Below, piece by piece: positions 285-45,370 of a DNA stretch of 56,822 nt (within the stretch, counting starts at the first letter, position 1; every line of letters starts with the position of its first letter). The notes under the pieces were generated by a model. It searched no databases and was not told where the DNA came from. It worked only from the letters and a program-made list of their open reading frames with translations. Source of the DNA: an uncultured Candidatus Saccharimonadales bacterium (lineage in GTDB: Bacteria > Patescibacteriota > Saccharimonadia > UBA4664); assembly GCA_964505035.1 (NCBI GenBank), contig CAZDGK010000002.1:1-56822 (forward strand). The letters run 5' to 3'. The position numbers and the translations under genes are program-made.

Positions 285-668
285 GTGGAGCAAGAGCAGA
301 AACCAGCGCGACGCATGAGCGACATCGGTCCGCGGCGACCGATGGACATGGTGCGGCGTCCGGCAGCCCAGCCGGCTCAACCAGTCCGGCCTCAGTCAAT
401 GGATCGGCCCCGGATGGAGCCTCGTCCCCAGCCCGTGCCGGCACCTGAGCCGGTGATACGCTCCGAGCCGTTGCCGCAACCAGTACATCAGCCGGCTCCT
501 CAGCCAGCCCCACCGCAGCCGGCGCCTGAGCCGAGGGTGGCCGCGCCGGAACCGGCTCGGGGTCGCCGCAGGGGATGGTGGATTGTGCTGCAGTTTGTGA
601 TTGGCTTGGCGATTATTGCGGGAGTGGCGGCGGCAATCGTGGTGCTTTATATCCGTTACTATCAGTAG
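285..668 (+). CDS. Pro/Gln-rich protein with C-terminal TM anchor (hypothetical)
   Basis: GTG 285 (ATG 315 is an alternative start). Repeated QPAPxP-type motifs and a hydrophobic tail, WWIVLQFVIGLAIIAGVAAAIVVLYI. Confidence 0.5.
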   Translation: MEQEQKPARRMSDIGPRRPMDMVRRPAAQPAQPVRPQSMDRPRMEPRPQPVPAPEPVIRSEPLPQPVHQPAPQPAPPQPAPEPRVAAPEPARGRRRGWWIVLQFVIGLAIIAGVAAAIVVLYIRYYQ

Positions 669-675
669 GAGCAGG

Positions 676-1104
676 GTGGAGCGCGCGGTTTACACAATAG
701 TCGGCTTGTTGGTGATCGTACTGGTGGCGGCCGGTTTGACGGGAGCTACGTACGTGATGGCTGGTGGCCGGGTGGCAGTACTTGATGGCTTGGTGGGGAC
801 GGCTGGGCCAACACCGACGGCGACCGTGAAGTCGACTGCTACGCCCGTGCCCACGCCGACAGCTACACCGACACCGACACCGACGGCTACGGCTACGCCC
901 GAGGTGACGCCGGCAGCCCGGACGGCTCGGGCGGTGTCATATGTGCGGCTGCGGCAGGGGCCGTCGACCAATACGGCCGTACTGACGCAGCTATATGGTG
1001 GCGAAATCGTGACGCTAGGGGGCTATAGCGACGCTCAATGGCAAGAGGTCTACTACAATGGCTTTCACGGTTATATCTACAAAACCTATCTGCAGTACCT
1101 GTAG
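676..1104 (+). CDS. Membrane-anchored protein with Thr/Pro linker and SH3b-like C-terminal domain
   Basis: GTG 676 is in frame with track ORF 601..1104 and preceded by AGGAGCAGG. It has an N-terminal TM (IVGLLVIVLVAAGLTGA), a TPTPTAT linker, and a C-terminus (VRLRQGPSTNTAVLTQLYGGEIVTL...YYNGFHGYIY) typical of bacterial SH3 domains. Confidence 0.6.
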   Translation: MERAVYTIVGLLVIVLVAAGLTGATYVMAGGRVAVLDGLVGTAGPTPTATVKSTATPVPTPTATPTPTPTATATPEVTPAARTARAVSYVRLRQGPSTNTAVLTQLYGGEIVTLGGYSDAQWQEVYYNGFHGYIYKTYLQYL

Positions 1105-1120
1105 AGACTAGTAATATACC

Positions 1121-1135
1121 GAACAGATAGCGAAC
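1121..1135. promoter_or_regulatory. GAAC-N7-GAAC direct-repeat box (third copy of the motif)
   Basis: ccGAACagatagcGAACag in the intergenic region. The minus-strand reading ctGTTCgctatctGTTCggta shares flanks with the boxes at 11365 and 40042. Confidence 0.35.
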
Positions 1136-3087: not shown

Positions 3088-4772
3088 ACGGGATACTGGC
3101 GCAGACCCGGGCGATGAGCTGGGTGAACCGGCGATGGTTTGAGCGGCTGCTGGAAATAATCCCGGGTGTGGTGAGCTGGTCTATCCTGATTGCGCCGATC
3201 CCTCTGAGTATGGTGGACCCGCTGGCGGTGGCATACTTCATCATCGCGTTTGACCTGTATTGGATGCTTAAGTCGTTCCGGCTGAGCTACTACCTGGTAC
3301 GGGGCTACCACCGGCTGCATGTGTCGCAGCGGATTGACTGGCAGGCACGTCTGGAATGGCTGAAGGAGCCAGCTAAGCATTTGGTGGTGACCAATCAGGC
3401 GCTGACGGAGCTGAAGGCGCGCTACCCGTTGGCCTGGTGGGGGCCGACGAAGGTGCGCCGGCGATACCGCCAGCTGCGCGAGGACCAGCATCTGCTGGCG
3501 GCGTTGTGTGCGCATGACAGCCTGGTGATGAGGCCGGAGGAGATTTATAACGCGGTGATCATGGCGGTGTCAGTGGAGCCGCAGGAGATTGTCGAACCAT
3601 CGGTGAAGGCGCTGACACATGCTGAGTATCCGGGCAAGCAGATGATGCTGGTGATTGCGTATGAGGAGCGGTGTGGCGAGGAGGCGGAGCGGATCTCGAA
3701 GCTGATGATTGAGCGGTATGGCGAGCATTTCGCGCTGGCGATCGCGGTGAAGCACCCAGACGGTGTGCCGGGCGAGGTTCGCGGCAAGGGACCGAATATT
3801 AGCCACGCCGGCCAGGTGCTGACTGAGGAAGTGCGCAAGCGCGGGCTGCACCCTGAGCAGGTGGTAGTGACGACGTTTGACGCGGATCACCGGGCGTCGG
3901 GCAACTATTTTGCCTGCCTGGCGTTTACGTACGCGAGCGACCCGAACCGAGTGCGCAAGAGCTTCCAGCCTATCCCCATGTTCTACAACAATATTTGGGA
4001 CGCGCCGGCGCCGATGCGGGTGATCGCGGCTGGTAACTCGTTTTGGCTCCTCATGGAGACGATGCGGCCGCGGCGGCTGCGCAACTTCGCGGCGCATGCC
4101 CAGAGCCTGGCAGCCCTGATAGCGACCGACTATTGGAGCCGGACGTCGATCGTGGAGGATGGCCATCAGTTCTGGCGGACGTACTTTACCTATGACGGCG
4201 ACCACAGTGTGGTGCCGCTGTATGCTTGTGTGTACCAGGATGCAGTGCTGAGCGACACATACATCAAGACGATCAAGGCGCAGTACAAGCAACTGCGCCG
4301 GTGGGCATGGGGTGCGAGCGATTTCTCGTACGCGGTGCGCAACGCGATCCTGAACCGGCAGATCCCGTGGAGCAACAAACTGGTGCAGATTGGCCGGCTG
4401 TTTGAGAGCCATGTGTCGTGGGCGACCGCCCCGCTACTGCTGACGTTTGTGGGCTATCTGCCACTGGTGCTGAGCCCCCGTAACAGCATTGATACGCTGC
4501 CGCATTTGCTGCCGATTATTACCTCGCGGATCATGCAGATAGCCTCGGTGGGAATTGTGGTGACGATTTTCATCAGCATGATCTCGCTGCCGCCGCGGCC
4601 GGAGCGCTACCGCCGGACCAAGAATGTGTTTATGGTGCTGCAGTGGCTGCTACTGCCGGTGACGTCGATCGCGTTCTCGTCGTTTGCGGCGATCGAGTCG
4701 CAGACGCGGCTTATCTTCAATCGCCGGCTGGAGAGCTTTGACATTACCGACAAGGCGGTGAAGAAACCGTGA
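3084..4772 (+). CDS. Membrane GT2-family (processive-type) glycosyltransferase
   Basis: TTFDADH (DxD), SIVEDG and a QxxRW-like KQLRRWAWG motif, with TM segments at both ends. Confidence 0.75.
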   Translation: MNGILAQTRAMSWVNRRWFERLLEIIPGVVSWSILIAPIPLSMVDPLAVAYFIIAFDLYWMLKSFRLSYYLVRGYHRLHVSQRIDWQARLEWLKEPAKHLVVTNQALTELKARYPLAWWGPTKVRRRYRQLREDQHLLAALCAHDSLVMRPEEIYNAVIMAVSVEPQEIVEPSVKALTHAEYPGKQMMLVIAYEERCGEEAERISKLMIERYGEHFALAIAVKHPDGVPGEVRGKGPNISHAGQVLTEEVRKRGLHPEQVVVTTFDADHRASGNYFACLAFTYASDPNRVRKSFQPIPMFYNNIWDAPAPMRVIAAGNSFWLLMETMRPRRLRNFAAHAQSLAALIATDYWSRTSIVEDGHQFWRTYFTYDGDHSVVPLYACVYQDAVLSDTYIKTIKAQYKQLRRWAWGASDFSYAVRNAILNRQIPWSNKLVQIGRLFESHVSWATAPLLLTFVGYLPLVLSPRNSIDTLPHLLPIITSRIMQIASVGIVVTIFISMISLPPRPERYRRTKNVFMVLQWLLLPVTSIAFSSFAAIESQTRLIFNRRLESFDITDKAVKKP

Positions 4773-5827
4773 ACTATCTGCTGGGATTTGGCCTGGCATT
4801 TGCGGTGACGGCAGCGGTGACACCTCTGGTGCGCCAGATAGCATTGCGTTACGGCATCGTAGACCGGCCTTCTGAGGCTCGCAAGATTCATCGCTGGCCG
4901 ATTGCCTACCTTGGCGGATCGGCTATCTTCGTGGGCTTCCTGGCGGCCGCAGCAGGCCTCCTGCCGCTGAGTCGGCAGTTGGTGGCGCTGATTCTGGGCT
5001 GCGTGATTTTGGTGGTGGTGGGCGTGCTAGACGATGTGCGCGGGCTGTCGCCGTGGACCAAGCTGGCGGCGCAGTTTGTGGCGGCTGGGGTGGCGCTGGC
5101 TGGCGGCATTGGGATTACGGCGGTGACCAGCCCGTGGGGCGGAGTGATTGACCTGAGCTGGGGTCGTATCGGGGTGGATGTGGCTGGACTGCATTTTCAT
5201 ATCATGCCGATTGCTAATGCGATTAGCTTGCTGTGGATGGTGGGCCTGGCCAATACGGTGAACTTCTTGGACGGTCTGGACGGACTATCGAGCGGAGTGT
5301 GTGGGATTGCGGCGCTGATAATCTTTGGCCTGGCAGTGGGTCCACATGTGAACCAGCCGGTGGTGGCGATGCTGGCGATTATCCTGGCGGGGGCGGCATT
5401 GGGATTCTTGCCATATCACTTCTATCCGGCGCGGATTTTCATGGGAGACTCGGGGGCATACTTCCTGGGACTATGCTTGGCGATGCTATCTATCTACTCT
5501 GGTGCCAAGCTGGCGACGGCGGTGCTGGTGCTAGGGTTTCCAATCCTGGACGCGGTGTGGGCGGTGGTGCGGCGGCTAGCACGCGGGGTCTCGCCGTTTA
5601 AGGCTGACCGGGGGCACTTTCACCATTTGCTACTGGATGCCGGTTTGTCCCAGCGACAGGCGGTGCTGGTGATGTATGTGGTGTCGGCAGCCTTGGGTTT
5701 GTCGGCTCTGGTGTTGGGAACGGTGGCCAAGCTGGTGGTGTTTGGCCTGCTGGTGGTGCTGATGGGGGTAACGATTGCTACATTGCTGCGGATTGGTGCT
5801 CAGCGCCGGAGTGTCCACCGGACGTAG
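4769..5827 (+). CDS. Polyprenyl-phosphate HexNAc-1-phosphate transferase (MraY/WecA family)
   Basis: Motifs NTVNFLDGLDGL and FMGDSGAYFLG, about 10 TM segments, GTGA overlap with the upstream GT2. Confidence 0.85.
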   Translation: MNYLLGFGLAFAVTAAVTPLVRQIALRYGIVDRPSEARKIHRWPIAYLGGSAIFVGFLAAAAGLLPLSRQLVALILGCVILVVVGVLDDVRGLSPWTKLAAQFVAAGVALAGGIGITAVTSPWGGVIDLSWGRIGVDVAGLHFHIMPIANAISLLWMVGLANTVNFLDGLDGLSSGVCGIAALIIFGLAVGPHVNQPVVAMLAIILAGAALGFLPYHFYPARIFMGDSGAYFLGLCLAMLSIYSGAKLATAVLVLGFPILDAVWAVVRRLARGVSPFKADRGHFHHLLLDAGLSQRQAVLVMYVVSAALGLSALVLGTVAKLVVFGLLVVLMGVTIATLLRIGAQRRSVHRT

Positions 5828-5899
5828 CCCCGGTATTTGACCAAGAGTTGGTGGCGGGGCGCTTCCAATGCTAGAATGAAGGTGTAACGGGGAGGTGCC

Positions 5900-6229
5900 A
5901 TGCAGCCACGATACCTACAAGAGTTAATCAAAAACTTGCAGGAGTTCTATAAGTGCCCCTCGTGCGAGACCAATTATCACTTTGATGATATCCGGTTCCT
6001 GGGGGAGATTGATCTGTACTGCTTTGTGCAGCTATCGTGCCATAATTGTTCACTACCGGTTCTAGCGACGGTGAGTGTAAATGGCAAGGGCGGGGCAAAG
6101 CGCAAGAGCGATCTCAAGCAGAGTGAGGAGGCCAAGTTTGCCTCCAAGGGGGCGATCAGCGCCTCGGAGATCGCGGAATTCCACCGGTGGATCGCTAAGT
6201 CAAAGTCGCTAGTGAGGCGGGCTAAATAG
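5900..6229 (+). CDS. Zinc-ribbon-like small protein (hypothetical)
   Basis: Two CxxC pairs (CPSC, CHNC). SD GGGGAGG upstream and an extended -10 TGcTAGAAT at 5869-5877. Confidence 0.5.
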   Translation: MQPRYLQELIKNLQEFYKCPSCETNYHFDDIRFLGEIDLYCFVQLSCHNCSLPVLATVSVNGKGGAKRKSDLKQSEEAKFASKGAISASEIAEFHRWIAKSKSLVRRAK

Positions 6230-7583: not shown

Positions 7584-8132
7584 ATGACCAACTGGGAGAC
7601 GGTAGATCGCCCCGGGTACTTTGGAAGGCACCGGGACGAGCGAAGGGCAGCCTACGACGCACAATACGGGCGGGGCCAATGGCGCATCGTGTGGGAGGCG
7701 GACGGCCGGCTGTTTGGCTTTGAGCAGATGGTGCTTCTGTACGAGGATGCCTATGTGGCCTATCTGGGGAGCAGTCAGGGATTGCCCTGGCTGGCTCAGC
7801 TGGTTGAATCGGCCTCGGATGTGTATGACGATGCACCGAGCAATGTGGCCAGTGGGCTCGACTATCTGAAGCAGGAGACCAGCCGGACGCATGTGCAGGA
7901 CGTGGCCATCCGGCGAGCGGTGGTGCGGCTGCGGGAGACTTTCCGCGGTCAGCAGCTGATTCAGATTCGGGATTCGCAGGGGTCGCACGTGCTAAGCATG
8001 GTGCTGTCGCCAGGCCAGGTGCCATTCCACCGGCCGGAGTTGATCCTGAAGCCCTTCCTGGAAGGCTGGTGGGAGCCGGGCAGTGTGGAGTGCTTCTACC
8101 AATCAAATAAGCTGCTGCAGGTGCAGCGGTGA
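7584..8132 (+). CDS. Hypothetical protein (182 aa), first gene of a coupled trio
   Basis: SD AAAGGA upstream. The stop overlaps the GTG of the next gene (GTGA). No family recognised. Confidence 0.55.
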   Translation: MTNWETVDRPGYFGRHRDERRAAYDAQYGRGQWRIVWEADGRLFGFEQMVLLYEDAYVAYLGSSQGLPWLAQLVESASDVYDDAPSNVASGLDYLKQETSRTHVQDVAIRRAVVRLRETFRGQQLIQIRDSQGSHVLSMVLSPGQVPFHRPELILKPFLEGWWEPGSVECFYQSNKLLQVQR

Positions 8133-8746: not shown

Positions 8747-9279
8747 TTGCTATTGCTGGGCCACCCAACTCGGGCAAGAGCTCTCAGGGTGAGCGACTGG
8801 CTGAGCGGCTGGGGGCGGTGTATCTATCGACCGGCCAGCTGCTGCGCGACGAAGCCAACCCGCAACTAATGGCAACGATGGGCCGGGGCGACTTGGTGCC
8901 GGCAGCACAGTTGGAGCGGCTGCTGGGCGCGGCGATCGCGGCGGTGCCTGCTGCGCAGATGATTGTGATGGATGGCCCAAAGAAGCCGCAGGAGGCAGAC
9001 TGGCTGATGGCTAAGCTGCCAGAGCTAGGCCGCCGGCTTGAGCGGGTGGTTTTGCTGCAGATTAGCGAGGCAGTGGCACGGCGGCGAAGCCTGAAGCGCG
9101 GCCGGTACGATGAAGCGGGTGAGGTGCTCAACGAGCGGTGGCGGCGCTACCGGGAAGAGACGATGCTTGGCATTGAGCGCTACCGGTCGGCCGGCTTGGT
9201 GACTGAAGTGGATGCATATGGATCGCCTGGTGAGGTGGCTCGGCGGATTGCTTTGGCGTTGGGTTTGAATGAGGTCTAA
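8725..9279 (+). CDS. Adenylate-kinase-family NMP kinase (short LID)
   Basis: P-loop GPPNSGKSS and NMP-binding STGQLLRDE. It overlaps the upstream gene by 22 nt. Confidence 0.6.
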   Translation: MDSVGRVIAIAGPPNSGKSSQGERLAERLGAVYLSTGQLLRDEANPQLMATMGRGDLVPAAQLERLLGAAIAAVPAAQMIVMDGPKKPQEADWLMAKLPELGRRLERVVLLQISEAVARRRSLKRGRYDEAGEVLNERWRRYREETMLGIERYRSAGLVTEVDAYGSPGEVARRIALALGLNEV

Positions 9280-9288
9280 CCAGCTCGA

Positions 9289-10599
9289 TTAGCGGGGGTC
9301 CTGGGTGAGCAGGTAGCGGGTGCTGCCGAAGGCAATTTTATCGGCTACATAGCCCTCGGTGCCGATAAGACGGGCCGGGATGAGGGTGAGGTCGCCATAG
9401 CGGTCGTTGACGACTTGCAGCGCCTGGTCGACACGCTCGTCACGCTGGGCGAGGGTTTCGTAGAGGTGAAGCTGTTCGTGGTGGCGTGGTTCGAGCAGGT
9501 AGGTGGACAGGCTGAAGCTGAGGACGGTTTGGCCCGCCGGACTTTGATTGAATAGCCAGATGGTGCGTTCGAATAGGTCGTGTAGGTTGGCGGCTGGCGC
9601 GCCAAAGACATGGCGGCGAAACCAGCGGTTGGACCAGCGCCTGGACCAACCATCGGTGAAGCGGCCGGTGCCGGCACTGGGTGGCGAGACGTAGTTGATG
9701 TTGAGGTGGACACCTCGGGCGGCTAGGTCAAACTTGCGCAGGCGCCGGCTGATGTAGTAGCAGAGCTTGTAGAGGACCTGGCCGAGCTCCTCTGGGTCGG
9801 CTGTGCGGTGGTGTAGGACATATTGCTTGCCGACCTGGCGCATACCGAAGGTGATGTCGTCGACTTCGTAGCCGCGTAGGCGGTAATACCAGTGGCGGCC
9901 ATGGATGCTGCCAAAGACCTGCTTGCTAAGGACTCGCTCGGGGGTGTGCAGGAATTCGTAGGGGGTAGCGATACCATTGGCCATGAGCCTGGCTCGCAGG
10001 CGGTGGTTGATGCCGTTGAGATCCATGAGCTTGGTGTAGTGATAGACGCCTTCTAGGTTGTGCTGAGTGATGACGTCGAGGCCATCTGGCTTGTTGAGGC
10101 CGGCGGCGAGCTTGGCCAGGAACCAATTAGAGGCTAGACCGACATTGATAGTCATCCAGCTCCCGAGAGCTTCCTTGACGCGGTCTTTGATCTCGTACCC
10201 AATGTCCTCGAGCGACCGGCCTCGTCGAAGCGTAGTGGTGCCGCGGAAGTCTAGAACGCCTTCGTCGATGGACTTCATCGTGACACGGGGCGCATAGTCC
10301 TCGAAGATGCCCTTGATGACGCCATGGACGTAGCGGTATTTGGGTGGGTCGGTTTCGACGATGGCGATGCCAGGGGCGAGCTGCCTGGCTTCATGCACGC
10401 TGGTGCCGCAGCGGACGCCAAGCCGCTTGGCCTCGTAGGATGGAGCGATGATGGTGCCCCACTCACTGCCGGCGCGGTTGGTGACGCCGACTGGCCGGCC
10501 TCGAAGCAGGGGATTGGCTTGCTGTTCAGTCATGGCAAAGCAGGCGTTGAGATCAATGTGCATGATCTCGCTGGGCGCGGGGTTGATGGGTAACTCCAT
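9289..10599 (-). CDS. Y-family DNA polymerase (UmuC/DinB-like)
   Basis: MHIDLNACFAMTEQ (D-x-N as in UmuC) and SIDEGVLD catalytic motifs. Trimmed to ATG 10599. GGAGG lies 13 nt upstream. ATG 10563 is an alternative start. Confidence 0.85.
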   Translation of the reverse strand: MELPINPAPSEIMHIDLNACFAMTEQQANPLLRGRPVGVTNRAGSEWGTIIAPSYEAKRLGVRCGTSVHEARQLAPGIAIVETDPPKYRYVHGVIKGIFEDYAPRVTMKSIDEGVLDFRGTTTLRRGRSLEDIGYEIKDRVKEALGSWMTINVGLASNWFLAKLAAGLNKPDGLDVITQHNLEGVYHYTKLMDLNGINHRLRARLMANGIATPYEFLHTPERVLSKQVFGSIHGRHWYYRLRGYEVDDITFGMRQVGKQYVLHHRTADPEELGQVLYKLCYYISRRLRKFDLAARGVHLNINYVSPPSAGTGRFTDGWSRRWSNRWFRRHVFGAPAANLHDLFERTIWLFNQSPAGQTVLSFSLSTYLLEPRHHEQLHLYETLAQRDERVDQALQVVNDRYGDLTLIPARLIGTEGYVADKIAFGSTRYLLTQDPR

Positions 10600-10618
10600 G
10601 GGTTTGTAAGAGCCTCCG

Positions 10619-10897
10619 TTAGGCTTCGGTGCTGAGTCGCAGCAGCTGCCAGGTGAGGGCTTCGGCGTCAAACTCTAGCTCAAAACAGGAGCCGTTGTGA
10701 CTGAAGGTAAACCGGTGTAGCATCCGCCGGCCTTTGCTCGTGGGCCAGCGCAGGCCCGTGTCGGTGATACGGTAGCGGCGACCACGCCACTCCATGACTT
10801 CGGGTTTGGCAAGGCTACCGCCCCGGCTGGCGTGCCGGAAGGAGGCTAGGACGTGGACTGGCTCGTTAACCTCTTCGGTATTCAGGTCGGTGCTCAT
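10619..10897 (-). CDS. 92-aa orphan protein between the 4HB and polymerase genes
   Basis: Trimmed to ATG 10897, with AGGAGG 4 nt upstream. The gaps to its neighbours are 17 and 19 nt. No family recognised. Confidence 0.55.
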   Translation of the reverse strand: MSTDLNTEEVNEPVHVLASFRHASRGGSLAKPEVMEWRGRRYRITDTGLRWPTSKGRRMLHRFTFSHNGSCFELEFDAEALTWQLLRLSTEA

Positions 10898-10914
10898 GAG
10901 GCCTCCTGAGGGGC

Positions 10915-11322
10915 TTAGATGGCGGCTGAGGCCATTTCTTCTTTGGCAGTGATCTCGGTTTTTTCTTGGCGCTCGGCTAGCTTGGTTTTGAGCCACTTGC
11001 TGAGACCCCAGGATTGTTTGATAACACCGGTATACTCGTTGAGTAGCTCGGTAGTGGCGCCGAAGGCACGAGCAGTCTCTAGATGCTTTTGGGTAACCTC
11101 GGCTTCGCGGCGGGCAGCAGCTAGGGAGTCGAGCTTGAGCCGGTAGCTGAAGAGACGGTGGGTTTCCATGATATGGTGGGAGACGGCGGCGCTGGAGCGG
11201 CGGAGATCGTTGCCCAGGCCATAGAACTGCTCGGCCGGAAGGTTTTTAACCAGCTCGTAGACTTGGTCTTCGAGTCCGCGGGCGGTTCGGTAAATGCGTA
11301 ACTGTTCGATTGATTCAGACAT
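10915..11322 (-). CDS. Four-helix-bundle protein (23S rRNA IVS / Avd-like family)
   Basis: Trimmed to ATG 11322 with SD AAGGAGG. The stretch LPAEQFYGLGNDLRRSSAAVSHHIMET matches the FP..E.YGL..Q.RRAA.S...NIAEG signature of this family. Confidence 0.75.
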   Translation of the reverse strand: MSESIEQLRIYRTARGLEDQVYELVKNLPAEQFYGLGNDLRRSSAAVSHHIMETHRLFSYRLKLDSLAAARREAEVTQKHLETARAFGATTELLNEYTGVIKQSWGLSKWLKTKLAERQEKTEITAKEEMASAAI

Positions 11323-11356
11323 GTGTAATCCTCCTTGATTATCACCCTCCGTAGGT

Positions 11357-11385
11357 AGGATACCGAATATAAACCGAACAGTCAA
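11357..11385 (-). promoter_or_regulatory. Promoter of the 4HB/orphan/polymerase operon, with a direct-repeat box in the spacer
   Basis: Minus strand reads TTGACT-17 nt-TATCCT. The spacer contains GTTCggtttatATTC (plus-strand coordinates 11365-11379). Confidence 0.55.
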
Positions 11386-11390
11386 GCCTT

Positions 11391-11416
11391 GAGAAAACCC
11401 GCTGATAGGGCGGGTT
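11391..11416 (-). terminator. Rho-independent terminator of ORF 11427..11675
   Basis: Minus strand reads aacccgc-cctatca-gcgggtt followed by TTTTCTC. Confidence 0.7.
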
Positions 11417-11426
11417 CCTCAGGGAT

Positions 11427-11675
11427 TTAGACGGAATGAGCGGGCTTAGCGGGGAACAGAGTCTGTTCCTGAGGCCGCTGGTGAGGGTAGCGCGGGCTGT
11501 GGCCGAGGGAGTCCTCGGTGATGCGGGCGACTTGGTCCTCGTTGAGGCCGGGTTGCCTTGAGTAGGGGGCTTCCAAGGCTTCCTGAGCCTCGGGGTCCAT
11601 GCTACTTAGCGGATCGTTTGTGGTGTGAGTTTCCAGATAGGAAAGCTCATATTCGTCCCATTTTTCTTCTTGCAT
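11427..11675 (-). CDS. Acidic hypothetical protein (82 aa)
   Basis: ORF bounded by its own terminator and by an upstream extended -10 (TGgTAAAAT on the minus strand). No family recognised. Confidence 0.45.
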   Translation of the reverse strand: MQEEKWDEYELSYLETHTTNDPLSSMDPEAQEALEAPYSRQPGLNEDQVARITEDSLGHSPRYPHQRPQEQTLFPAKPAHSV

Positions 11676-11726
11676 ATATACCTCACTTACATTGCCTCAC
11701 CACAGGCTGTCGGTGTTCCGCGGCAG

Positions 11727-11761
11727 CCTGAATGACGTTATTTAAAATAGCGTCATTCAGG
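11727..11761. repeat. Perfect 11-bp inverted repeat with a 13-nt A/T loop
   Basis: cctgaatgacg-ttatttaaaatag-cgtcattcagg. A third half-site, tagcgtcatt, lies at 11771-11780. Confidence 0.8.
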
Positions 11762-11833
11762 GCTAACAGGTAGCGTCATTTTACCAAAATTGACAAGGTT
11801 GAATAACGCTTTGCTTGTGATATAACACCAATG

Positions 11834-13024
11834 CTAGACGGTTTCGGGGGTGTCTTGATAGAACATGAGACCCAACTTGATCTGCAGAGCGTCGTCGAAA
11901 TGGCGTGGGTCCAGACCGATGAGCTTCTTGGTCTTGTCGAGACGGTAAATGAGAGTATTGCGGTGGATGTGGAGCTTGTCGGCGGCTTCGGTGAGGTTGA
12001 GGCCGCTAGCTAAGAAGGCCTGGACGGTTTTGAAGAGCTGCTCGTCGCGCAGGAGGGGCGAGAGAATTTGATGGGCCAGCTCGGCCTTGCGGTCCTGGCT
12101 GGTGTTGGCCAGGGTGATGAACATGCCGACGCGCTTGATGTGATAGGTGCGGCCGAGCCCCCAGACTTTGCTGCCGACTTCCAGGGCGAGTTTGGCATCC
12201 TGGTAACTTTTGCGCAGGCCGCGCAGATCTGGATAGAACTGACCGATGCCGATGGTGACGGAGTACTTTAGTTGTAATTTTTGCAACAATTCAAACAGGT
12301 AGTCGCTTTTTTCGGTAAGGTAGCGGATGGTGTTGAGGGTGGTTAGATTGTCGCCGGTGATGCCTTTGAGGAGGGCAAACTGATCTGAGCCGACGTAGGC
12401 CACGAGGTTTTCGGGGAGGTTCTGCAGGCCTTCACGAATGCGCTGGCTGAGACTCTCGGTGACCTGGTCGAGCTGGAGCTGTTGCTCTTCGGAAGAGAGA
12501 TGGGAGTGGTCCTTGCGGACGCGGTTCTCGAGCCCGTCGAGATGGATAATGACGGCGGCTTGCGGGGTGCGGAGGTTGAGCTGCAGGATGTCGGCCTGCC
12601 GGTAGATGTCGTCGACATCGACGGAATTCTCGGTGAGAGCATGGTGAATGAAGTCGGCTCGGACGCGCTCGGCAGACTGGATCTTATCGAGCAGGAAATG
12701 CTGGTAGACGATGACCTCGGCTAGCCCTTGCAGCAGAGTGGTGGCCTCCTGGGTGATGGGGCCGGTATCAAGTGGCAGACCAAACACGGCAATGGTTTGG
12801 TCTTCGTAAACGAATGGCCACCACTTGGTCTGGCGCTCCTCGAAATCGCCGGTCAGGGCGTGGCCGGTTTGGGCGACATTGAGGGCTTCGGGGACGAAGA
12901 CGCGCTTCTGGCCGTTGTTGCTGGCAATGAGCTGGCCGGCGAGGTCGCACAGAATAATGTCACGCTTGAGGATAGAGTGAGCTTTGTCGACGATTTGCTT
13001 GGCGAGGGCGCTATTGAGTAACAC
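11834..13024 (-). CDS. CdaR/PucR-family transcriptional regulator (paralog 2)
   Basis: C-terminal PucR-type HTH LNLTEAADKLHIHRNTLIYRLDKTKKLIGLDP. GTG 13024 gives MLLNSALAKQIVDK, which parallels the paralog's N-terminus. TTG 13039 is an alternative start. Confidence 0.8.
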   Translation of the reverse strand: MLLNSALAKQIVDKAHSILKRDIILCDLAGQLIASNNGQKRVFVPEALNVAQTGHALTGDFEERQTKWWPFVYEDQTIAVFGLPLDTGPITQEATTLLQGLAEVIVYQHFLLDKIQSAERVRADFIHHALTENSVDVDDIYRQADILQLNLRTPQAAVIIHLDGLENRVRKDHSHLSSEEQQLQLDQVTESLSQRIREGLQNLPENLVAYVGSDQFALLKGITGDNLTTLNTIRYLTEKSDYLFELLQKLQLKYSVTIGIGQFYPDLRGLRKSYQDAKLALEVGSKVWGLGRTYHIKRVGMFITLANTSQDRKAELAHQILSPLLRDEQLFKTVQAFLASGLNLTEAADKLHIHRNTLIYRLDKTKKLIGLDPRHFDDALQIKLGLMFYQDTPETV

Positions 13025-14147
13025 GGCCGGGCTCCACAAAACGGTTATAGAGGATAGCTAGCTTGATCTGGATGGCGTCATCGAAGACTCGGGGGTCGAG
13101 GCCGAGGGTTTCGGTAATACGGTCGAGGCGGTACACGAGCGTGTTGCGGTGGATGCCGAGCGTCTCGGCGGTACGGGTGAGGGACATATCGAAGGCGAAG
13201 AAGGCTTCGAGCGTCTGGATGATTTCTTGGTTTTCGCCCAGGCGCTCGAGAAGCTCACGGGAGAAGTAGATGTTGGACTCGTCCACGCCGGAGAGCAGTG
13301 GCGCGACGACGCCGAAATCGTCGATATGGTAGATGCGGTCTTGGTCCCAGGTCTGGGCGCCGAGCTCGATGGCCGAGATGGCTTCATGGTAGCTCTGGCG
13401 CAGGCCTTCGAGGCCGGGGTGATAGTTGCCGACGCCGACGGTGGCGGGGAGCTTGAGTTCACTCTTGAGGATGCCGTAGATGGCGCTGAGAGACTTCTTG
13501 AAGGCTTCGAGATGCGTGGCTAACTCGCCGCCCTCTTCGGGTAGCAGATCTTTGAGAATGCAGAAGCTGGTGCCGCCCAGGTAGCTGACAACGTTTTCGC
13601 GACTGGAGGTGTAGAACGAATTGAGTGCGCGGGTGATGCCGAATTTGTAGCGGGTGAGGCGGACTTCGCGGTCGCCGGCGGGGTCGCGCAGGCGACTGGT
13701 GAGCTGCGGATCGTCGATCTGGATGACGATGGCAATGCGCGGCCGCTCGAGCTGGATGTCGAACAGGCGGGCTTCGGCGGCCAGCAGTGGCCAGTCGGGC
13801 TGTGGTTGGTTGAGCAGGTCGTAGATGAACTTGTCGAGCCGCTCGTCGGCGCGGGGGATTTGCTCGAGCACGAGGGACTGGTGCATGACAAGCTCGGCGA
13901 TGGAGCGGATGAGTGGGGCGATCTCGGCATGGTTGGACATCTCGGCCTCGAGAATGATGTAGCCGACGACATTGCCGCCGTAGGAGAAGGGGATGGCCCA
14001 GGGGAAGTCAGCTAGCTTGACGGCTTCGGAGCTGAGGGCGGGAGTGGCGGCGAGGGTTTGGCCAGTGGCGTCGACGATACGCAGCTCCTGGCTGACCAGG
14101 GCGCTGACTTTGGCGCGTATCTTGTCGGCGATTTGCTGACTCAGCAT
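13011..14147 (-). CDS. CdaR/PucR-family transcriptional regulator (paralog 1)
   Basis: HTH TRTAETLGIHRNTLVYRLDRITETLGLDP. Trimmed to ATG 14147 (MLSQQIADKI). Confidence 0.8.
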   Translation of the reverse strand: MLSQQIADKIRAKVSALVSQELRIVDATGQTLAATPALSSEAVKLADFPWAIPFSYGGNVVGYIILEAEMSNHAEIAPLIRSIAELVMHQSLVLEQIPRADERLDKFIYDLLNQPQPDWPLLAAEARLFDIQLERPRIAIVIQIDDPQLTSRLRDPAGDREVRLTRYKFGITRALNSFYTSSRENVVSYLGGTSFCILKDLLPEEGGELATHLEAFKKSLSAIYGILKSELKLPATVGVGNYHPGLEGLRQSYHEAISAIELGAQTWDQDRIYHIDDFGVVAPLLSGVDESNIYFSRELLERLGENQEIIQTLEAFFAFDMSLTRTAETLGIHRNTLVYRLDRITETLGLDPRVFDDAIQIKLAILYNRFVEPGRVTQ

Positions 14148-14304
14148 GCTTCCAAACCTCTTACGCTGGCACTTCACACAATACAATTACTAGCCTAACG
14201 CGGCTGACGTTTGGCCCGCAAGCATTAGCGGAATGTATTTTTGTGGCCCTGGTAAGAGGAAAGCACAAACCCCGCAGGCGCGGGGTTGGCTGGGGAATAA
14301 TATC

Positions 14305-32171: not shown

Positions 32172-32535
32172 AGGTCAGACCACAAGATGATCGCGGCGGC
32201 TCAAAAGGCCGACGAGGAAAGTCCGGACAGCACAGAGCAGGACGGTTGCTAACGGCAACCGCGGGTGACCGTAGGGAAAGTGCCACAGAAACGAAACCGC
32301 CCGCAAGGGTAAGGGTGAAACGAGTGGGGTAAGAGCCCACAGCCAATCCGGGTGACCGGTGCGGAAGGTAAACCCCGTCTGCTGCAAGGCAGCTCCATCA
32401 AGCCCCGTAAGGGGTGGGTTGCTCGCCCGATGAAGCGTACGCGCCGCTGGAGACTGGTGGCAACACCAGCCCTAGAGAGATGATCATCCACCCAGCAATG
32501 GGGGACAGAATCCGGCTTACCAGTGGTCTGGCAAG
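32172..32535 (+). ncRNA. rnpB: RNase P RNA, bacterial type A
   Basis: GAGGAAAGTCCGG, AGGGAAAGTGCCACAGAAA and ACAGAATCCGGCTTAC conserved blocks. The P1 pairing is 32174-83 with 32523-32. Confidence 0.9.
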
Positions 32536-38220: not shown

Positions 38221-38514
38221 ATGGCAAAGAAGTCTAAGGCAACCAAGAAGCATAAATTTAAGCATGTTGAGGCTACACGGACGATTGAGACGGTAGTCAG
38301 CCGGACCGAGGTTGAGGTAGCGGAGGCTAGTAGCGAGGCGGCGAGGCCAGCTGCCACGGTGCTAGTGGCTAATCCAGCCGTTGTGTATCTTACAACGGAT
38401 CTGCGCCGTATTAGCTTATTGATCGTAATCTTAGTGGCGCTGCAGCTGCTGTTGTGGTTTGTGTTCAATACTACGACGCTGGATGATCAGATTTATCGCG
38501 CGCTAAAAATTTAG
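38221..38514 (+). CDS. Small Lys-rich protein with C-terminal TM (hypothetical)
   Basis: MAKKSKATKKHKFKH... followed by ISLLIVILVALQLLLWFVF. Confidence 0.45.
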   Translation: MAKKSKATKKHKFKHVEATRTIETVVSRTEVEVAEASSEAARPAATVLVANPAVVYLTTDLRRISLLIVILVALQLLLWFVFNTTTLDDQIYRALKI

Positions 38515-40016
38515 CTCAGTGGTGTGCGTGAGCGATACTGCAGAGCTTCGGAGAAGTGTGCCAGCGTAATAGATTGACTGCCAGCCAGGTCGGCGATGGT
38601 GCGCGAGACCTTGAGCAGGCGGTTGAAGGCCCTGGCCGATAGCTTGAGGTGGGCGGCTGCAGAGCGGGCGAGCTGGCGGGTTTGGTTGTCCAGGCCGCAA
38701 TACTCACGAATTTGAGCGGTGGTTAGATGAGCGTTGAGTGTGGCTGAGCCATGACGACTGACCTGGATGAGTCTAGCAGCCGCGACGCGCGCCCGAATTG
38801 GTGCGGTAGGCTCACTGAGTTGGGCCTCGGTCAGTTCGTCGTGAGCCACTGGTGCTACGTCAATGACAAGGTCGATGCGGTCGAGTAAGGGGCCGGATAA
38901 TCGGCGCTGATAGAGATTGACCTGGTGCCGGCTGCAGGTGCAGCGGTCGTCGCCGTTGTAGCCGCAGGGACAGGGGTTGCGGGTGGCTACAAGCATGAAC
39001 CGAGCAGGGAAGGTGGCGACGGCTGAGGCCCGGGCGACAGTGACCTCGCCGTCTTCGAGGGGCTGGCGGAGGGCTTCGAGCACGTCATGGGAGAATTCTG
39101 GCATCTCGTCGAGGAAGAGGATGCCCTGGTGGCTCAGGCTGACTTCTCCCGGGCGGGGGATTGAGCCACCACCGATAATGGCGGTGGCTGAGGCACTGTG
39201 ATGGGGCGAGCGGAGCGGTCTTGAGCGCATAATACCGGAATGGTTCAGGCCGACTACACTATAGAGCTTGGTGATTTGGATCATTTCCTCGTAGGTGGGA
39301 GCTGGTAGCAGGCTGATCAACGCACGCGACATCAGAGTTTTACCTGAACCGGGAGGCCCAGACAGGAGAATGTTGTGGCTACCAGCGGCGGCAATCTCGA
39401 GAGCTCGTTTGGCGTATTTCTGGCCGCTGATGAACTGGAAGTCGATATCTGAAGCAGCGACTTCGCCAGTTAATTTTGTGGTATTTTTCACAACGGCTAG
39501 CGGCTTGATGCCGCGCAGATGATTGAATAATTCTTGGAGTGAGCTGACGCCAATGACCTTGAGACCTTCGACCATGGCGGCTTCCTGGGTGTTGTCTGGC
39601 GGAAGGTAGATATGTGTGAAGCCACGCCGGAGGGCAAGCTCGGCGCCAAGCAGAGCGCCTTTGACCGGCCGGAGCTCGCCGTTGAGTGACAACTCGCCGA
39701 AGAATAGCGCACCGGTGGTCATTTCGGTGTCGAGCTGGCCGCTGGCAACGAGGACCGAGACGGCCATCGCGAGGTCGTAGCCGGTGCCGTCCTTGGGCAG
39801 ATCGGCGGGTGCGAGGTTGAGAGTGATGCGGCGCTGAGGCAGGGCGAGGCCACTGTTTTTGATGGCACTGCGAATGCGCTCGCGGGCTTCGTCGACAGAT
39901 TTGTGGGCTAGCCCGACTATGACGAAGCCGGGAAGGCCATTGGCAAGATCGCATTCGACTTGGACAAGCGCACCTTCGAGGTGGCAGAGGGCTGGCGTGT
40001 AGATTTGTGATAGCAT
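38511..40016 (-). CDS. comM: Mg-chelatase-like AAA+ protein ComM/YifB
   Basis: Trimmed to ATG 40016. Lon-like N-terminal domain, Walker A GPPGSGKT, FLDEMPEF, and a Cys cluster CPCG...C.C. Confidence 0.9.
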   Translation of the reverse strand: MLSQIYTPALCHLEGALVQVECDLANGLPGFVIVGLAHKSVDEARERIRSAIKNSGLALPQRRITLNLAPADLPKDGTGYDLAMAVSVLVASGQLDTEMTTGALFFGELSLNGELRPVKGALLGAELALRRGFTHIYLPPDNTQEAAMVEGLKVIGVSSLQELFNHLRGIKPLAVVKNTTKLTGEVAASDIDFQFISGQKYAKRALEIAAAGSHNILLSGPPGSGKTLMSRALISLLPAPTYEEMIQITKLYSVVGLNHSGIMRSRPLRSPHHSASATAIIGGGSIPRPGEVSLSHQGILFLDEMPEFSHDVLEALRQPLEDGEVTVARASAVATFPARFMLVATRNPCPCGYNGDDRCTCSRHQVNLYQRRLSGPLLDRIDLVIDVAPVAHDELTEAQLSEPTAPIRARVAAARLIQVSRHGSATLNAHLTTAQIREYCGLDNQTRQLARSAAAHLKLSARAFNRLLKVSRTIADLAGSQSITLAHFSEALQYRSRTPLS

Positions 40017-40041
40017 GGCAGATCCTGTAAAGTGATGATGC

Positions 40042-40056
40042 GAACGTAAACCGAAC
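40042..40056 (-). promoter_or_regulatory. GTTC-N7-GTTC box overlapping the comM -10/TSS
   Basis: Minus strand TTGACA-17 nt-TATGTT promoter (40054-40082), with tatGTTCggtttacGTTCgc spanning the -10 and downstream. Confidence 0.5.
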
Positions 40057-40088
40057 ATAATCTGCCTGTACAGTGTTGTCAATATGTA

Positions 40089-40117
40089 TTGACGGCGCTG
40101 ATTACCTATTCTACGAT
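40089..40117 (+). promoter_or_regulatory. Promoter giving a leaderless TrmB-like regulator mRNA
   Basis: TTGACG-17 nt-TACGAT. The -10 ends 6 nt before ATG 40124. Confidence 0.55.
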
Positions 40118-40123
40118 GAGGGC

Positions 40124-40909
40124 ATGAATGAACAGCAGCTGATTTCTCATATCGAAGAGTTAGGTCTGAGTAATAAAGAGGCCAGAGTCTACGTGGGCTG
40201 CTTGAAGGTGGGTCCGTCACCCGTGCAGCGGATTGCTGACCAGGCCGGGATTAAGCGGGTGACTGCGTACGTAGTGCTGGAGTCGCTGGCTGGTCTAGGG
40301 CTGGTCTCTCAGAGTGTAAAGGGCAAGAAGACGTTCTTTGTAGCAGAGGACCCGAGTAACCTTGAGCGCTTGCTTGAGAGGCGTGAGGATGAACTGAAGG
40401 ATCAGCGCAGCAACTTTGAGCAGGCTTTACCCGAGCTGACTAAACTGAAGGCGATCCCGAAAGAATTGCCAGAGGTGAAGTTCTTTGACGGCGCGGATGG
40501 CGTGAGGTCGCTGTTTGCGAGCTTCTTTGGCCTGTACAAAGGCGAGGAGAAGGACATTTACGTGCTGAGTAATGCCGACCAGCTGCACGCTTTCTTCCCA
40601 GAGCGGCGTACGGCCAAAGGTAACCCAGAGCGGATTCGGCACGGTATTCGCAGCCACTTGCTCTATACGAGTACACGCGGGGCAATTTATCAGGACAGCG
40701 ATGAGTCGAGTATTCGGGAGTCGCGATATGTGCCGTCCGATAAATATCCCCTGAGCGGTGATATTAGCGTGATTGGCGACTATGTGATCATGATTTCGCT
40801 CGTGGGTCCGCGGCCAATGGCGGTAACACTTCGCAACGAGGATATGGCACGAGCTATGAGAGCCTTCTTTAGCATGGCCTGGGAAGCGGCTAGCCAATAT
40901 AACAAGTAA
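40124..40909 (+). CDS. TrmB-family transcriptional regulator
   Basis: N-terminal LGLSNKEARVYVGCLKVGPSPVQRIADQAGIKRVTAYVVLESL wHTH, typical of TrmB. Confidence 0.7.
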   Translation: MNEQQLISHIEELGLSNKEARVYVGCLKVGPSPVQRIADQAGIKRVTAYVVLESLAGLGLVSQSVKGKKTFFVAEDPSNLERLLERREDELKDQRSNFEQALPELTKLKAIPKELPEVKFFDGADGVRSLFASFFGLYKGEEKDIYVLSNADQLHAFFPERRTAKGNPERIRHGIRSHLLYTSTRGAIYQDSDESSIRESRYVPSDKYPLSGDISVIGDYVIMISLVGPRPMAVTLRNEDMARAMRAFFSMAWEAASQYNK

Positions 40910-44991: not shown

Positions 44992-45370
44992 GGGGCTGAT
45001 CAGCTTCGACGTTGGGATCTTTGATAGCTCAAGCACGCAGGTCGTAGGCACGCGTTAGCTTCCAACAAGTTAGCTTAACTGCCAACTTCATTTCGCGGGT
45101 GAAGGCTGCTTTTAGCATGCCGTCGTTCGCTCCCGCTTTCGCTTAATCGCGAAAGCCATCGGCGCCTGACACCAGATGGGGTTCCGCCGGTGCCATATTA
45201 TCTGGCTGCTCCTAGCTGTAGGCCTCTGCAGTTAGGCTAAGACTAGAGGCTGCTCATCCGGCGGTTTTGTTCGTTCACATGCCGGGTGCTAAGACTGCCA
45301 GACGGACTAAGCCTGTAGTGTGCTAGCGTCAACCTAGCGGACCGGGGTGCGATTCCCCGCAGCTCCACCA
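44992..45370 (+). ncRNA. ssrA: tmRNA
   Basis: The 5' GGGGCUG pairs with the 3' CAGCUCC-ACCA, including G3-U. A T-arm GGGGTGCGATTCCCC is present. The tag ORF is GCC AAC ... GCT TAA, with the stop in the loop of hairpin gctttcgc/gcgaaagc. Confidence 0.92.

Follow-up and report, generated by a model that had tools for sequence, protein, structure and literature searches.

Introduction

To our knowledge, putative mutasomes of the ImuB-C–PolY(–RecA) class, in which a small ImuB-C protein accompanies a Y-family DNA polymerase (PolY), are widespread and have never been characterised biochemically. The closest described systems are an operon of Geobacter sulfurreducens, lexA–imuB-C–polY (GSU0041-0043 type), and the putative mutasome class composed of PolY and a standalone ImuB-C, with or without RecA (Aravind et al., 2013, PMC3765255; Timinskas and Venclovas, 2019, PMC6511836; Nucleic Acids Research, 2026, PMC12926913). 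Here, we analysed a 56,822-nt stretch of DNA from an uncultured Candidatus Saccharimonadales bacterium (GenBank assembly GCA_964505035.1, contig CAZDGK010000002.1, positions 1 to 56,822; hereafter the window), whose minus strand carries a four-helix-bundle (4HB) protein gene, a small gene and a PolY gene in direct succession. An initial annotation, made from the letters of the DNA, had proposed that the three might form a non-canonical mutagenesis module. Our comparison with the published systems suggested that the locus is probably a translesion-synthesis cassette of a Candidatus Saccharibacteria bacterium under LexA-type (SOS) control.

In the first of these studies, the GSU0042-like proteins were described as standalone ImuB-C proteins, encoded mostly beside DinB and often together with LexA, and were predicted to be all-beta, with a conserved C-terminal Trp and basic residues (PMC3765255). 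The Geobacter lexA–imuB-C–polY genes form a damage-induced single transcript (PMC6511836). More recently, ImuB-C was described as a beta-barrel without close relatives in the PDB, and AlphaFold models above the thresholds of the interface predicted template modelling score (ipTM) were reported for representatives of all 11 association-module types, PolY plus ImuB-C included (PMC12926913).

Results

Transcriptional organisation of the locus

The first gene of the locus encodes the 135-aa 4HB protein (10915..11322, minus strand; PF05635/TIGR02436), which contains LPAEQFYGLGNDLRRSSAAVSHHI. It is followed by the gene of the 92-aa small protein (10619..10897, minus strand), which is GSU0042-like, weakly related to DUF6504, predicted to be all-beta and of the standalone ImuB-C type, and by the gene of the 436-aa PolY (9289..10599, minus strand), an active-type Y-family polymerase containing HIDLNACFA and SIDEGVLD. 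Gaps of 17 and 19 nt separate the genes, and a Shine–Dalgarno (SD)-like AGGAGG or GGAGG lies shortly 5′ of all three starts. A promoter scan of positions 9000..11900 returned two promoter-like sites only, namely the sigma-70-type promoter TTGACT-17-TATCCT (11357..11385, minus strand) and a weaker one overlapping it. On the minus strand between the three genes, the consensus scan detected neither a promoter-like nor a terminator-like site. Just upstream, a terminator-like hairpin could be read from the sequence (AACCCGC-loop-GCGGGTT followed by TTTCTC; 11390..11416, minus strand). It closes the 82-aa gene that lies upstream and shields the operon from a block of PucR-type regulator genes; a counterpart was found in the related contig L004 (alignment A3), and the automatic terminator scan missed it because its T-run is short.

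With no internal promoter or terminator and with this hairpin upstream, the 4HB, ImuB-C and PolY genes look like a single transcription unit. The layout given in the initial annotation (three minus-strand genes with gaps of this size, an SD for each and one shared promoter) agrees with the coordinates, the motifs and the scan, and the two polymerase motifs that it called intact are both present. The window has a G+C content of 58.5%, and its PolY is 68-70% identical to the PolY of metagenome-assembled genomes (MAGs) assigned to Saccharibacteria/Saccharimonadia.

Homology places the small protein in the standalone ImuB-C family

The 92-aa protein had been regarded as an orphan without recognisable family. 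Besides three close homologs, a search of a library of 1.8 billion proteins yielded 132 representative relatives at E < 1e-3, nearly all of 80-90 aa, so that the orphan label has to give way to that of a DUF6504-related, standalone ImuB-C protein. The Pfam family DUF6504 (PF20114) was matched by 31 of 80 relatives at E < 0.01 (best 6e-8), and some relatives carry the NCBI name 'DUF6504 family protein'; a literature search on DUF6504 found no paper. Three long proteins of the phmmer list (P0156, P0192 and P0215) were considered as ImuB-like fusions and discarded as spurious matches because they are VWA, surface-repeat and similar proteins.

The link to the described family runs through Geobacter. 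The small proteins of G. anodireducens and Pelobacter propionicus scored 76-99 bits against the family profiles A2 and A4, and 24-25 bits against A1, the profile of eight Saccharibacteria sequences alone, and P0290, encoded between lexA and PolY in contig L009, matched A2 at E 2e-15. The standalone ImuB-C family was founded on small proteins of the Geobacter type. The features of that family recur in the protein of the window: about 80-100 aa, an all-beta fold, a C-terminal Trp, basic residues and no catalytic pattern. The residues W83, W37, P32 and G56 do not vary in alignment A4, where a W-x-G-R-x-Y-R motif contributes conserved basic residues. The AlphaFold2 model has seven strands and is all-beta (mean predicted local distance difference test score, pLDDT, 88.6). 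A Foldseek search with this model gave no PDB match with E < 0.1, and the profile of the small protein gave insignificant matches only against PDB sequences (best an Sso7d-derived affitin, E 0.21). A predicted all-beta fold without PDB neighbour fits the published description of ImuB-C.

None of the three operon proteins matched YolD (PF08863) or Peptidase_S24 at E ≤ 1, which agrees with the earlier statement that an S24-peptidase (UmuD/LexA-like) gene is missing here and speaks against a YolD- or S24-type identity of the polymerase partner. Judged by these homologies, the small protein is a member of the described GSU0042-like standalone ImuB-C family, and the module is therefore not a new kind of mutasome. 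The connection of the family to the ImuB C-terminus itself is taken from the literature (PMC3765255).

The small gene and the PolY gene form a conserved pair

Gene order was compared in ten Saccharibacteria contexts, namely the window, three contigs of the Joint Genome Institute (JGI) and the contigs or contig groups L001, L002, L003, L004/5, L138-141 and L142-144. In all ten, the small gene (homologs of 86-92 aa) lies immediately 5′ of the PolY gene, often overlapping it. The pair also occurs beyond Saccharibacteria, in another member of the Patescibacteria (L006) and in a MAG (L010), and the order lexA–DUF6504–PolY or lexA–small gene–PolY was found in an unclassified bacterium (L008) and a Geobacteraceae MAG (L009), respectively. 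On a plasmid of G. anodireducens (L145), lexA is directly followed by an 84-aa 'hypothetical' small gene; no PolY gene is annotated after it, and none was recovered there by an open reading frame (ORF) scan. In L006, a Bro-N domain gene (5445-5930), of a kind typical of phages and mobile elements, comes after the DUF6504–PolY pair.

With a pairing that persists from phylum to phylum, it is very probable that the small protein serves the polymerase as an accessory partner. A different role was originally proposed for the family. Aravind et al. suggested a non-catalytic role in DNA binding or damage recognition, and they reported ImuB-C genes also beside Ku/ligase, SplB photolyase and SRAP genes without a polymerase (PMC3765255). 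The small protein could accordingly be an independent damage-sensing DNA-binding protein that merely shares the operon, and the conserved basic residues of the W-x-G-R-x-Y-R motif are in keeping with this. We nevertheless find it doubtful for the locus studied here. In many lineages the small gene overlaps or nearly overlaps the PolY gene, a layout that points to translational coupling and a fixed stoichiometry; the protein is just mildly basic (isoelectric point 8.0); and the homologous domain of ImuB is joined to a polymerase-like body and was modelled as a protein-binding barrel (PMC12926913).

The polymerase retains its catalytic residues

Both Pfam domains of Y-family polymerases, IMS (PF00817, 100.8 bits) and IMS_C (PF11799, 34.7 bits), were detected in the PolY of the window and in each of 65 homologs. 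D16 of HIDLN and D112-E113 of SIDEG are invariant in the 65 homologs (alignment A5), and the polymerase should therefore be catalytically active. Its first active-site motif is the UmuC-like D-x-N, and to this extent its earlier description as a UmuC-like polymerase stands. The whole protein scores otherwise: the UmuC model NF002955 gave 65 bits against a cut-off of 431, whereas the best NCBIfam model, the Pol IV subfamily NF003015, gave 166 bits, below its own cut-off of 367. Likewise, the best PDB sequence match was a Pol IV (7yll, 1.3e-34), and UmuC chains were absent from the top 60 PDB matches. By these scores, the enzyme is closer to Pol IV than to UmuC, yet belongs to a distinct PolY group.

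The C-terminal tail contains two conserved motifs, recognised by conservation and profile alignment. The first, QLHLY (9460..9474, minus strand), resembles a beta-clamp-binding motif; Q376 and L379 are invariant in the 65 homologs, and QLHLY aligned in register with the motifs QLSVF and QLSLF that occur in a Listeria PolY and in UmuC, the alignment with UmuC being weak. The second is the RecA-NT-like segment R-VDQALQVVNDRYGDLTLIPA (9373..9435, minus strand), in which N398, D399, Y401, G402, P408 and A409 are conserved or invariant, following the pattern A-x-x-x-x-N-D-R-Y-G-x-x-T-L-x-P-A in the 65 homologs. In a four-sequence search, the tail profile fell in register with the QLSxF clamp motif and the RecA-NT-like region of the PolY from a Listeria plasmid (domain E 1.5e-5). 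Of the 65 homologs, one matched Pfam DUF4113, weakly, and the isolated tail did not match it, and a search of the tail against PDB sequences returned nothing. Taken together, the tail likely carries a RecA-NT motif.

A direct-repeat operator links the locus to a putative LexA regulon

The spacer of the operon promoter is filled by the direct repeat TGTTCGG-TTTAT-ATTCGG (11363..11380, minus strand), a putative LexA box whose GTTC-N7-ATTC core lies at 11365..11379 (minus strand). The pattern GTTC-N7-RTTC occurs seven times in the window, with 1.9 occurrences expected, and none of 100 shuffles reached seven. Alignment of the regions upstream of the 4HB gene from four Saccharibacteria genomes revealed an invariant TTGAC-TGTTCGG-N5-(G/A)TTCGG-TAT block amid diverging flanks; the −35 hexamer and the beginning of the −10 element are invariant in the four loci, as is the box in the orthologous promoters of L001, L002 and L004. 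In L003, the box lies directly 5′ of the ImuB-C–PolY pair, and in L138 a variant with one mismatch precedes the pair. L004 and L142-144 have two boxes per locus, one before ImuB-C–PolY and one before the 4HB gene. No separate box precedes the pair in the clade of the window. The presence of separate boxes before both units in these relatives leads us to assign the 4HB gene and the pair to one putative LexA-type regulon, with the two units fused in the clade of the window.

A second copy of the operator, TGTTCGGTTTACGTTCGC (40040..40057, minus strand), lies outside the operon and overlaps the −10 element of the comM promoter. The gene below it (38511..40016) encodes a ComM/Mg-chelatase-like protein, and the earlier claim of a box shared with comM is correct. 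The mechanically called comM ORF (38511-40220, minus strand) begins at 40220; its likely start is the ATG at 40016 (MLSQIYTP...), just 3′ of the promoter TTGACA-17-TATGTT. The same arrangement of box and comM was found in L079. A third copy, TGTTCGCTATCTGTTCGG (1119-1136, core 1121..1135, minus strand), is followed by a −10-like TATATT. It is directed against the plus-strand ORF 601..1104, entering the 3′ end of that ORF in antisense, and no credible ORF lies downstream of it; its product may be an antisense or small RNA, or its target may be the gene that starts near 1272 on the plus strand.

A scan of public metagenome contigs with the exact 21-nt pattern yielded 124 occurrences in 120 stretches. 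In 14 of the 124, all on low-GC contigs, the box is directly upstream of lexA. Others precede a PolY gene of the same family (two), comM (one), a strong PF05635 gene (one) and an imuA–imuB–dnaE2 cassette (one, L031). In several cases the box-preceded lexA, an ORF of 487-502 aa, encodes LexA fused to an N6/N4 DNA methyltransferase (L015, L039, L066 and L095); the 502-aa ORF of L039 contains the Pfam domains LexA_DNA_bind, Peptidase_S24 and N6_N4_Mtase. The Geobacter LexA palindrome was not found upstream of lexA in L009.

Autoregulated lexA genes are the usual hallmark of a LexA operator. Moreover, the direct repeat GTTC-N7-GTTC is a known class of LexA motif (PMC8565304), and a further paper cites a report of a direct-repeat LexA motif in Patescibacteria (PMC7739468). 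We read the box as a LexA-type operator because it precedes 14 lexA genes and belongs to this known class; the 4HB gene, the ImuB-C–PolY pair and comM thus appear to be part of one putative SOS regulon. The damage-type regulation suggested by the initial annotation gains support from the same 14 genes.

The box could also be the operator of some other regulator, for example the adjacent PucR/CdaR-type pair, and respond to a signal other than DNA damage, since the window contains no lexA gene and two PucR-type regulators are conserved beside the 4HB gene in this lineage. We consider this very unlikely. In L003 the box stands before ImuB-C–PolY without a PucR gene nearby, in the window it recurs before comM 29 kb away, and elsewhere it precedes an imuA–imuB–dnaE2 cassette; the genes behind it have typical SOS functions, and an identical box directly before 14 lexA genes is what LexA autoregulation classically looks like.

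The 4HB gene shares the operator and varies in position

The assignment of the first gene to a four-helix-bundle family proved right, PF05635 (48.5 bits, cut-off 33.8) and TIGR02436 (41.9 bits, cut-off 24) both being matched above their cut-offs. A single-sequence model of low confidence (pLDDT 63) has four helices, and its top Foldseek matches were Xcc0516 (2GSC), the best, with a template modelling (TM) score of 0.6-0.7, and BT_0352 (2RLD), Avd chains ranking lower; for a single-sequence model of this pLDDT the comparison is merely indicative. The protein is 75-79% identical to those of L001, L002 and L004. An Avd-like role, to which the family membership had pointed, found no support: Pfam detected no bAvd-like signature (PF22296) in the protein, and neither a reverse transcriptase nor template/variable repeats were found near the gene, which is surrounded by genes of PucR regulators, an acidic protein of 82 aa, ImuB-C, PolY and kinases. 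We know of no function for PF05635 four-helix-bundle proteins outside the Avd of diversity-generating retroelements (DGRs).

In the clade of the window (the window, three JGI contigs, L001 and L002), the genes are ordered PucR–PucR–small acidic protein–4HB–ImuB-C–PolY on one strand. The tandem PucR/CdaR-type regulators (11427-14186, minus strand; Diacid_rec–GGDEF_2–HTH_30) are conserved 5′ of the 4HB gene across this lineage, as is the fast-evolving, acidic 82-aa protein (isoelectric point 4.6). The ImuB-C–PolY pair of L004/5 and L142-144 has the opposite orientation, and the 4HB gene is convergent to it, with its own promoter; relative to positions 9289-10897 of the window, the pair (L004 3748-5302, L142 2732-4284) is inverted in place between kinase genes and the 4HB gene. 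No 4HB gene lies close to the pair in L003 and L138-141 (within 3-4 kb) or in any of the non-Saccharibacteria contexts. When the window is compared with L004, identity is 79% for the 4HB and PucR proteins, 34% for ImuB-C and 51% for PolY. Divergence and inversion of the pair suggest replacement of the cassette or accelerated evolution, and since the divergence of the 4HB protein is uncoupled from that of the pair, ImuB-C–PolY behaves as a separate, replaceable cassette. A leader segment of about 45 nt, which includes GTTTTAGGTTAGGTCTGCGAGCAAAGGAG, is conserved 5′ of the 4HB gene in L001 (~4160-4225), L002 (~4180-4240) and L004 (~5850-5915, all minus strand) and is missing in the window.

The comparison of neighbours in relatives thus gave two answers: the small gene recurs beside PolY, and the 4HB gene is an inconstant neighbour. 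Of the idea that accessory subunits are encoded by both the 4HB gene and the small gene, the part concerning the small protein is supported, its pairing with PolY being conserved, and the part concerning the 4HB protein found no support. A ternary mutagenesis complex, with the 4HB protein serving the error-prone polymerase in the manner of Avd, would fit the tight operon of the window clade, the adjacency of the 4HB gene to the pair in two arrangements, its strong conservation, and the fact that it bears the operator of the pair even as a separate transcription unit. A further box precedes a PF05635 gene in the unrelated low-GC contig L075 (1116 nt), where the operator and a TATAAT lie 101 nt 5′ of a strong PF05635/bAvd-like gene (Pfam E 9e-33), so that a predicted LexA-type box stands before a 4HB gene there independently. 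Against such a complex stand the convergent arrangement with its own promoter, the absence of the gene near the pair in the other contexts, the uncoupled evolution, the missing bAvd-like match and reverse transcriptase, and the greater proximity of the protein to the uncharacterised Xcc0516 than to Avd. We consequently judge the ternary complex quite unlikely.

The shared operator supports co-regulation of the 4HB gene with PolY, and a physical role in the polymerase complex is speculation. One could imagine that PF05635 proteins of Saccharibacteria and other members of the Candidate Phyla Radiation (CPR) are SOS-regulon members that work with ImuB-C–PolY, for instance through contacts with nucleic acid or with the polymerase, much as Avd binds the DGR reverse transcriptase, and that the three-gene operon is a functional fusion; at present we regard this as unlikely.

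Other features of the window

A PADLOC scan of the window returned no defence-system matches. Rfam identified ordinary housekeeping RNAs (RNase P RNA of class A, tmRNA and five tRNA genes; sites include 32175-32535 and 44992-45370). A 182-aa ORF without Pfam match lies between nrdR and a uridine-kinase-like gene (7584-8132, plus strand).

Discussion

A LexA-controlled lesion-bypass cassette is probable

The LexA-type (SOS) controlled translesion-synthesis cassette, which we consider the probable nature of the locus, could work as follows. Its functional core would be the last two genes, encoding the standalone ImuB-C beta-barrel and the catalytically intact PolY. By analogy with the published models of this module type, ImuB-C would bind PolY as a regulatory or targeting subunit, and PolY would also dock on RecA and the beta clamp, giving a PolY–[ImuB-C]–RecA lesion-bypass complex. 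A LexA-type repressor would occlude the spacer-filling TGTTCGG-N5-RTTCGG operator until DNA damage occurs. The 4HB gene would be a separate member of the same regulon, with its own operator-promoter in relatives, and a local inversion in the clade of the window may have placed the pair right behind it, creating the three-gene operon.

Several observations weigh against this interpretation. The small protein of the window scored 19.4 bits against DUF6504, under the cut-off of 24.2. The family could not be connected directly with ImuB: searches of L031 ImuB, which is Gemmatimonadota-type, with the profiles A2 and A4 gave nothing, a Pfam scan of the same protein for DUF6504 was negative, and hhalign of A4 with two Gemmatimonadota-type ImuB C-termini gave a probability of 0.4, a thin comparison of two sequences, tblastn of ImuB against plasmids having yielded one record. 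The RecA-NT-like motif of the PolY tail is recognised by weak profile alignments only. On the regulatory side, tblastn found none of lexA, recA and dnaE in the window, so that binding of LexA in this organism is something we infer, and the second repeat of the window box has A in place of G (ATTCGG). In addition, a related PolY gene of 190-200 bits lies with the operator directly 5′ and no ImuB-C gene between or adjacent in L100 (7258-8488) and L101 (3675-4902), and therefore the small protein is not obligatory across the polymerase family.

Significance

The module type, the family of the small protein and the class of the operator are already in the literature. Our additions are modest: the presence and anatomy of the module in Saccharibacteria, the extended operator consensus and the recurrence of the operator before a PF05635 gene, the link of the 4HB protein to the SOS response being possibly a new lead. 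That ultra-small, host-dependent Saccharibacteria keep an ImuB-C–PolY cassette under a recognisable LexA-type operator offers a compact system in which to test ImuB-C. The consensus TGTTCGG-N5-GTTCGG(TAT) can be used for predicting regulons in CPR bacteria, and a 4HB gene that repeatedly bears the operator is a testable lead to the function of the very large PF05635 family. Furthermore, 'hypothetical' genes of 80-90 aa located 5′ of Y-family polymerase genes in Patescibacteria can be named ImuB-C/DUF6504-like.

Comparison with known systems

In UmuD- and YolD-type systems, and probably here as well, a small accessory gene lies directly 5′ of a LexA-controlled Y-family polymerase gene whose product has a RecA-binding-type tail, and the first active-site motif of the PolY studied here is shared with UmuC. 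The small protein differs from those accessory subunits in lacking an S24 or YolD match and in having a predicted fold without PDB neighbour, and the PolY falls well short of the UmuC model, being closer to Pol IV. In the ImuA–ImuB–DnaE2 mutasome, ImuB has been described as a Y-family body with a RecA-NT motif and an ImuB-C barrel, parts whose putative counterparts the window divides between two genes. Unlike ImuB, the Y-family enzyme of the window keeps its catalytic residues, the operon lacks ImuA and DnaE2, and similarity of the small protein to the ImuB C-terminus was undetected in the sequences compared.

The 4HB protein shares sequence family and four-helix fold with the PF05635/TIGR02436 proteins Xcc0516 and BT_0352, of which Avd is a subfamily. 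It differs from the Avd of DGRs in the absence of the bAvd-like signature, of a reverse transcriptase and of template/variable repeats, and in the LexA-type operator that its gene bears. The operator has the core of the GTTC-N7-GTTC LexA boxes of Alphaproteobacteria, and like them it lies in or near the −10 and −35 elements and precedes genes for translesion polymerases as well as lexA and comM; the Saccharibacteria/CPR version is extended to TGTTCGG-N5-GTTCGG(TAT), with ATTCGG as second repeat in the window copy.

The nearest counterpart is the Geobacter-type operon and the class of PolY plus ImuB-C to which it belongs. The operon of the window differs from it in having no lexA, in using a direct-repeat box instead of the Geobacter palindrome, and in the PF05635 4HB gene fused before the pair; its host is a reduced-genome member of the Saccharibacteria, a group not named in those surveys. 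Common to both are a homologous small beta-protein encoded immediately 5′ of an active Y-family polymerase, control of the SOS type (predicted for the window), the lack of UmuD, YolD, ImuA and DnaE2, and, probably, a clamp-like motif followed by a RecA-NT-like motif in the tail of the polymerase.

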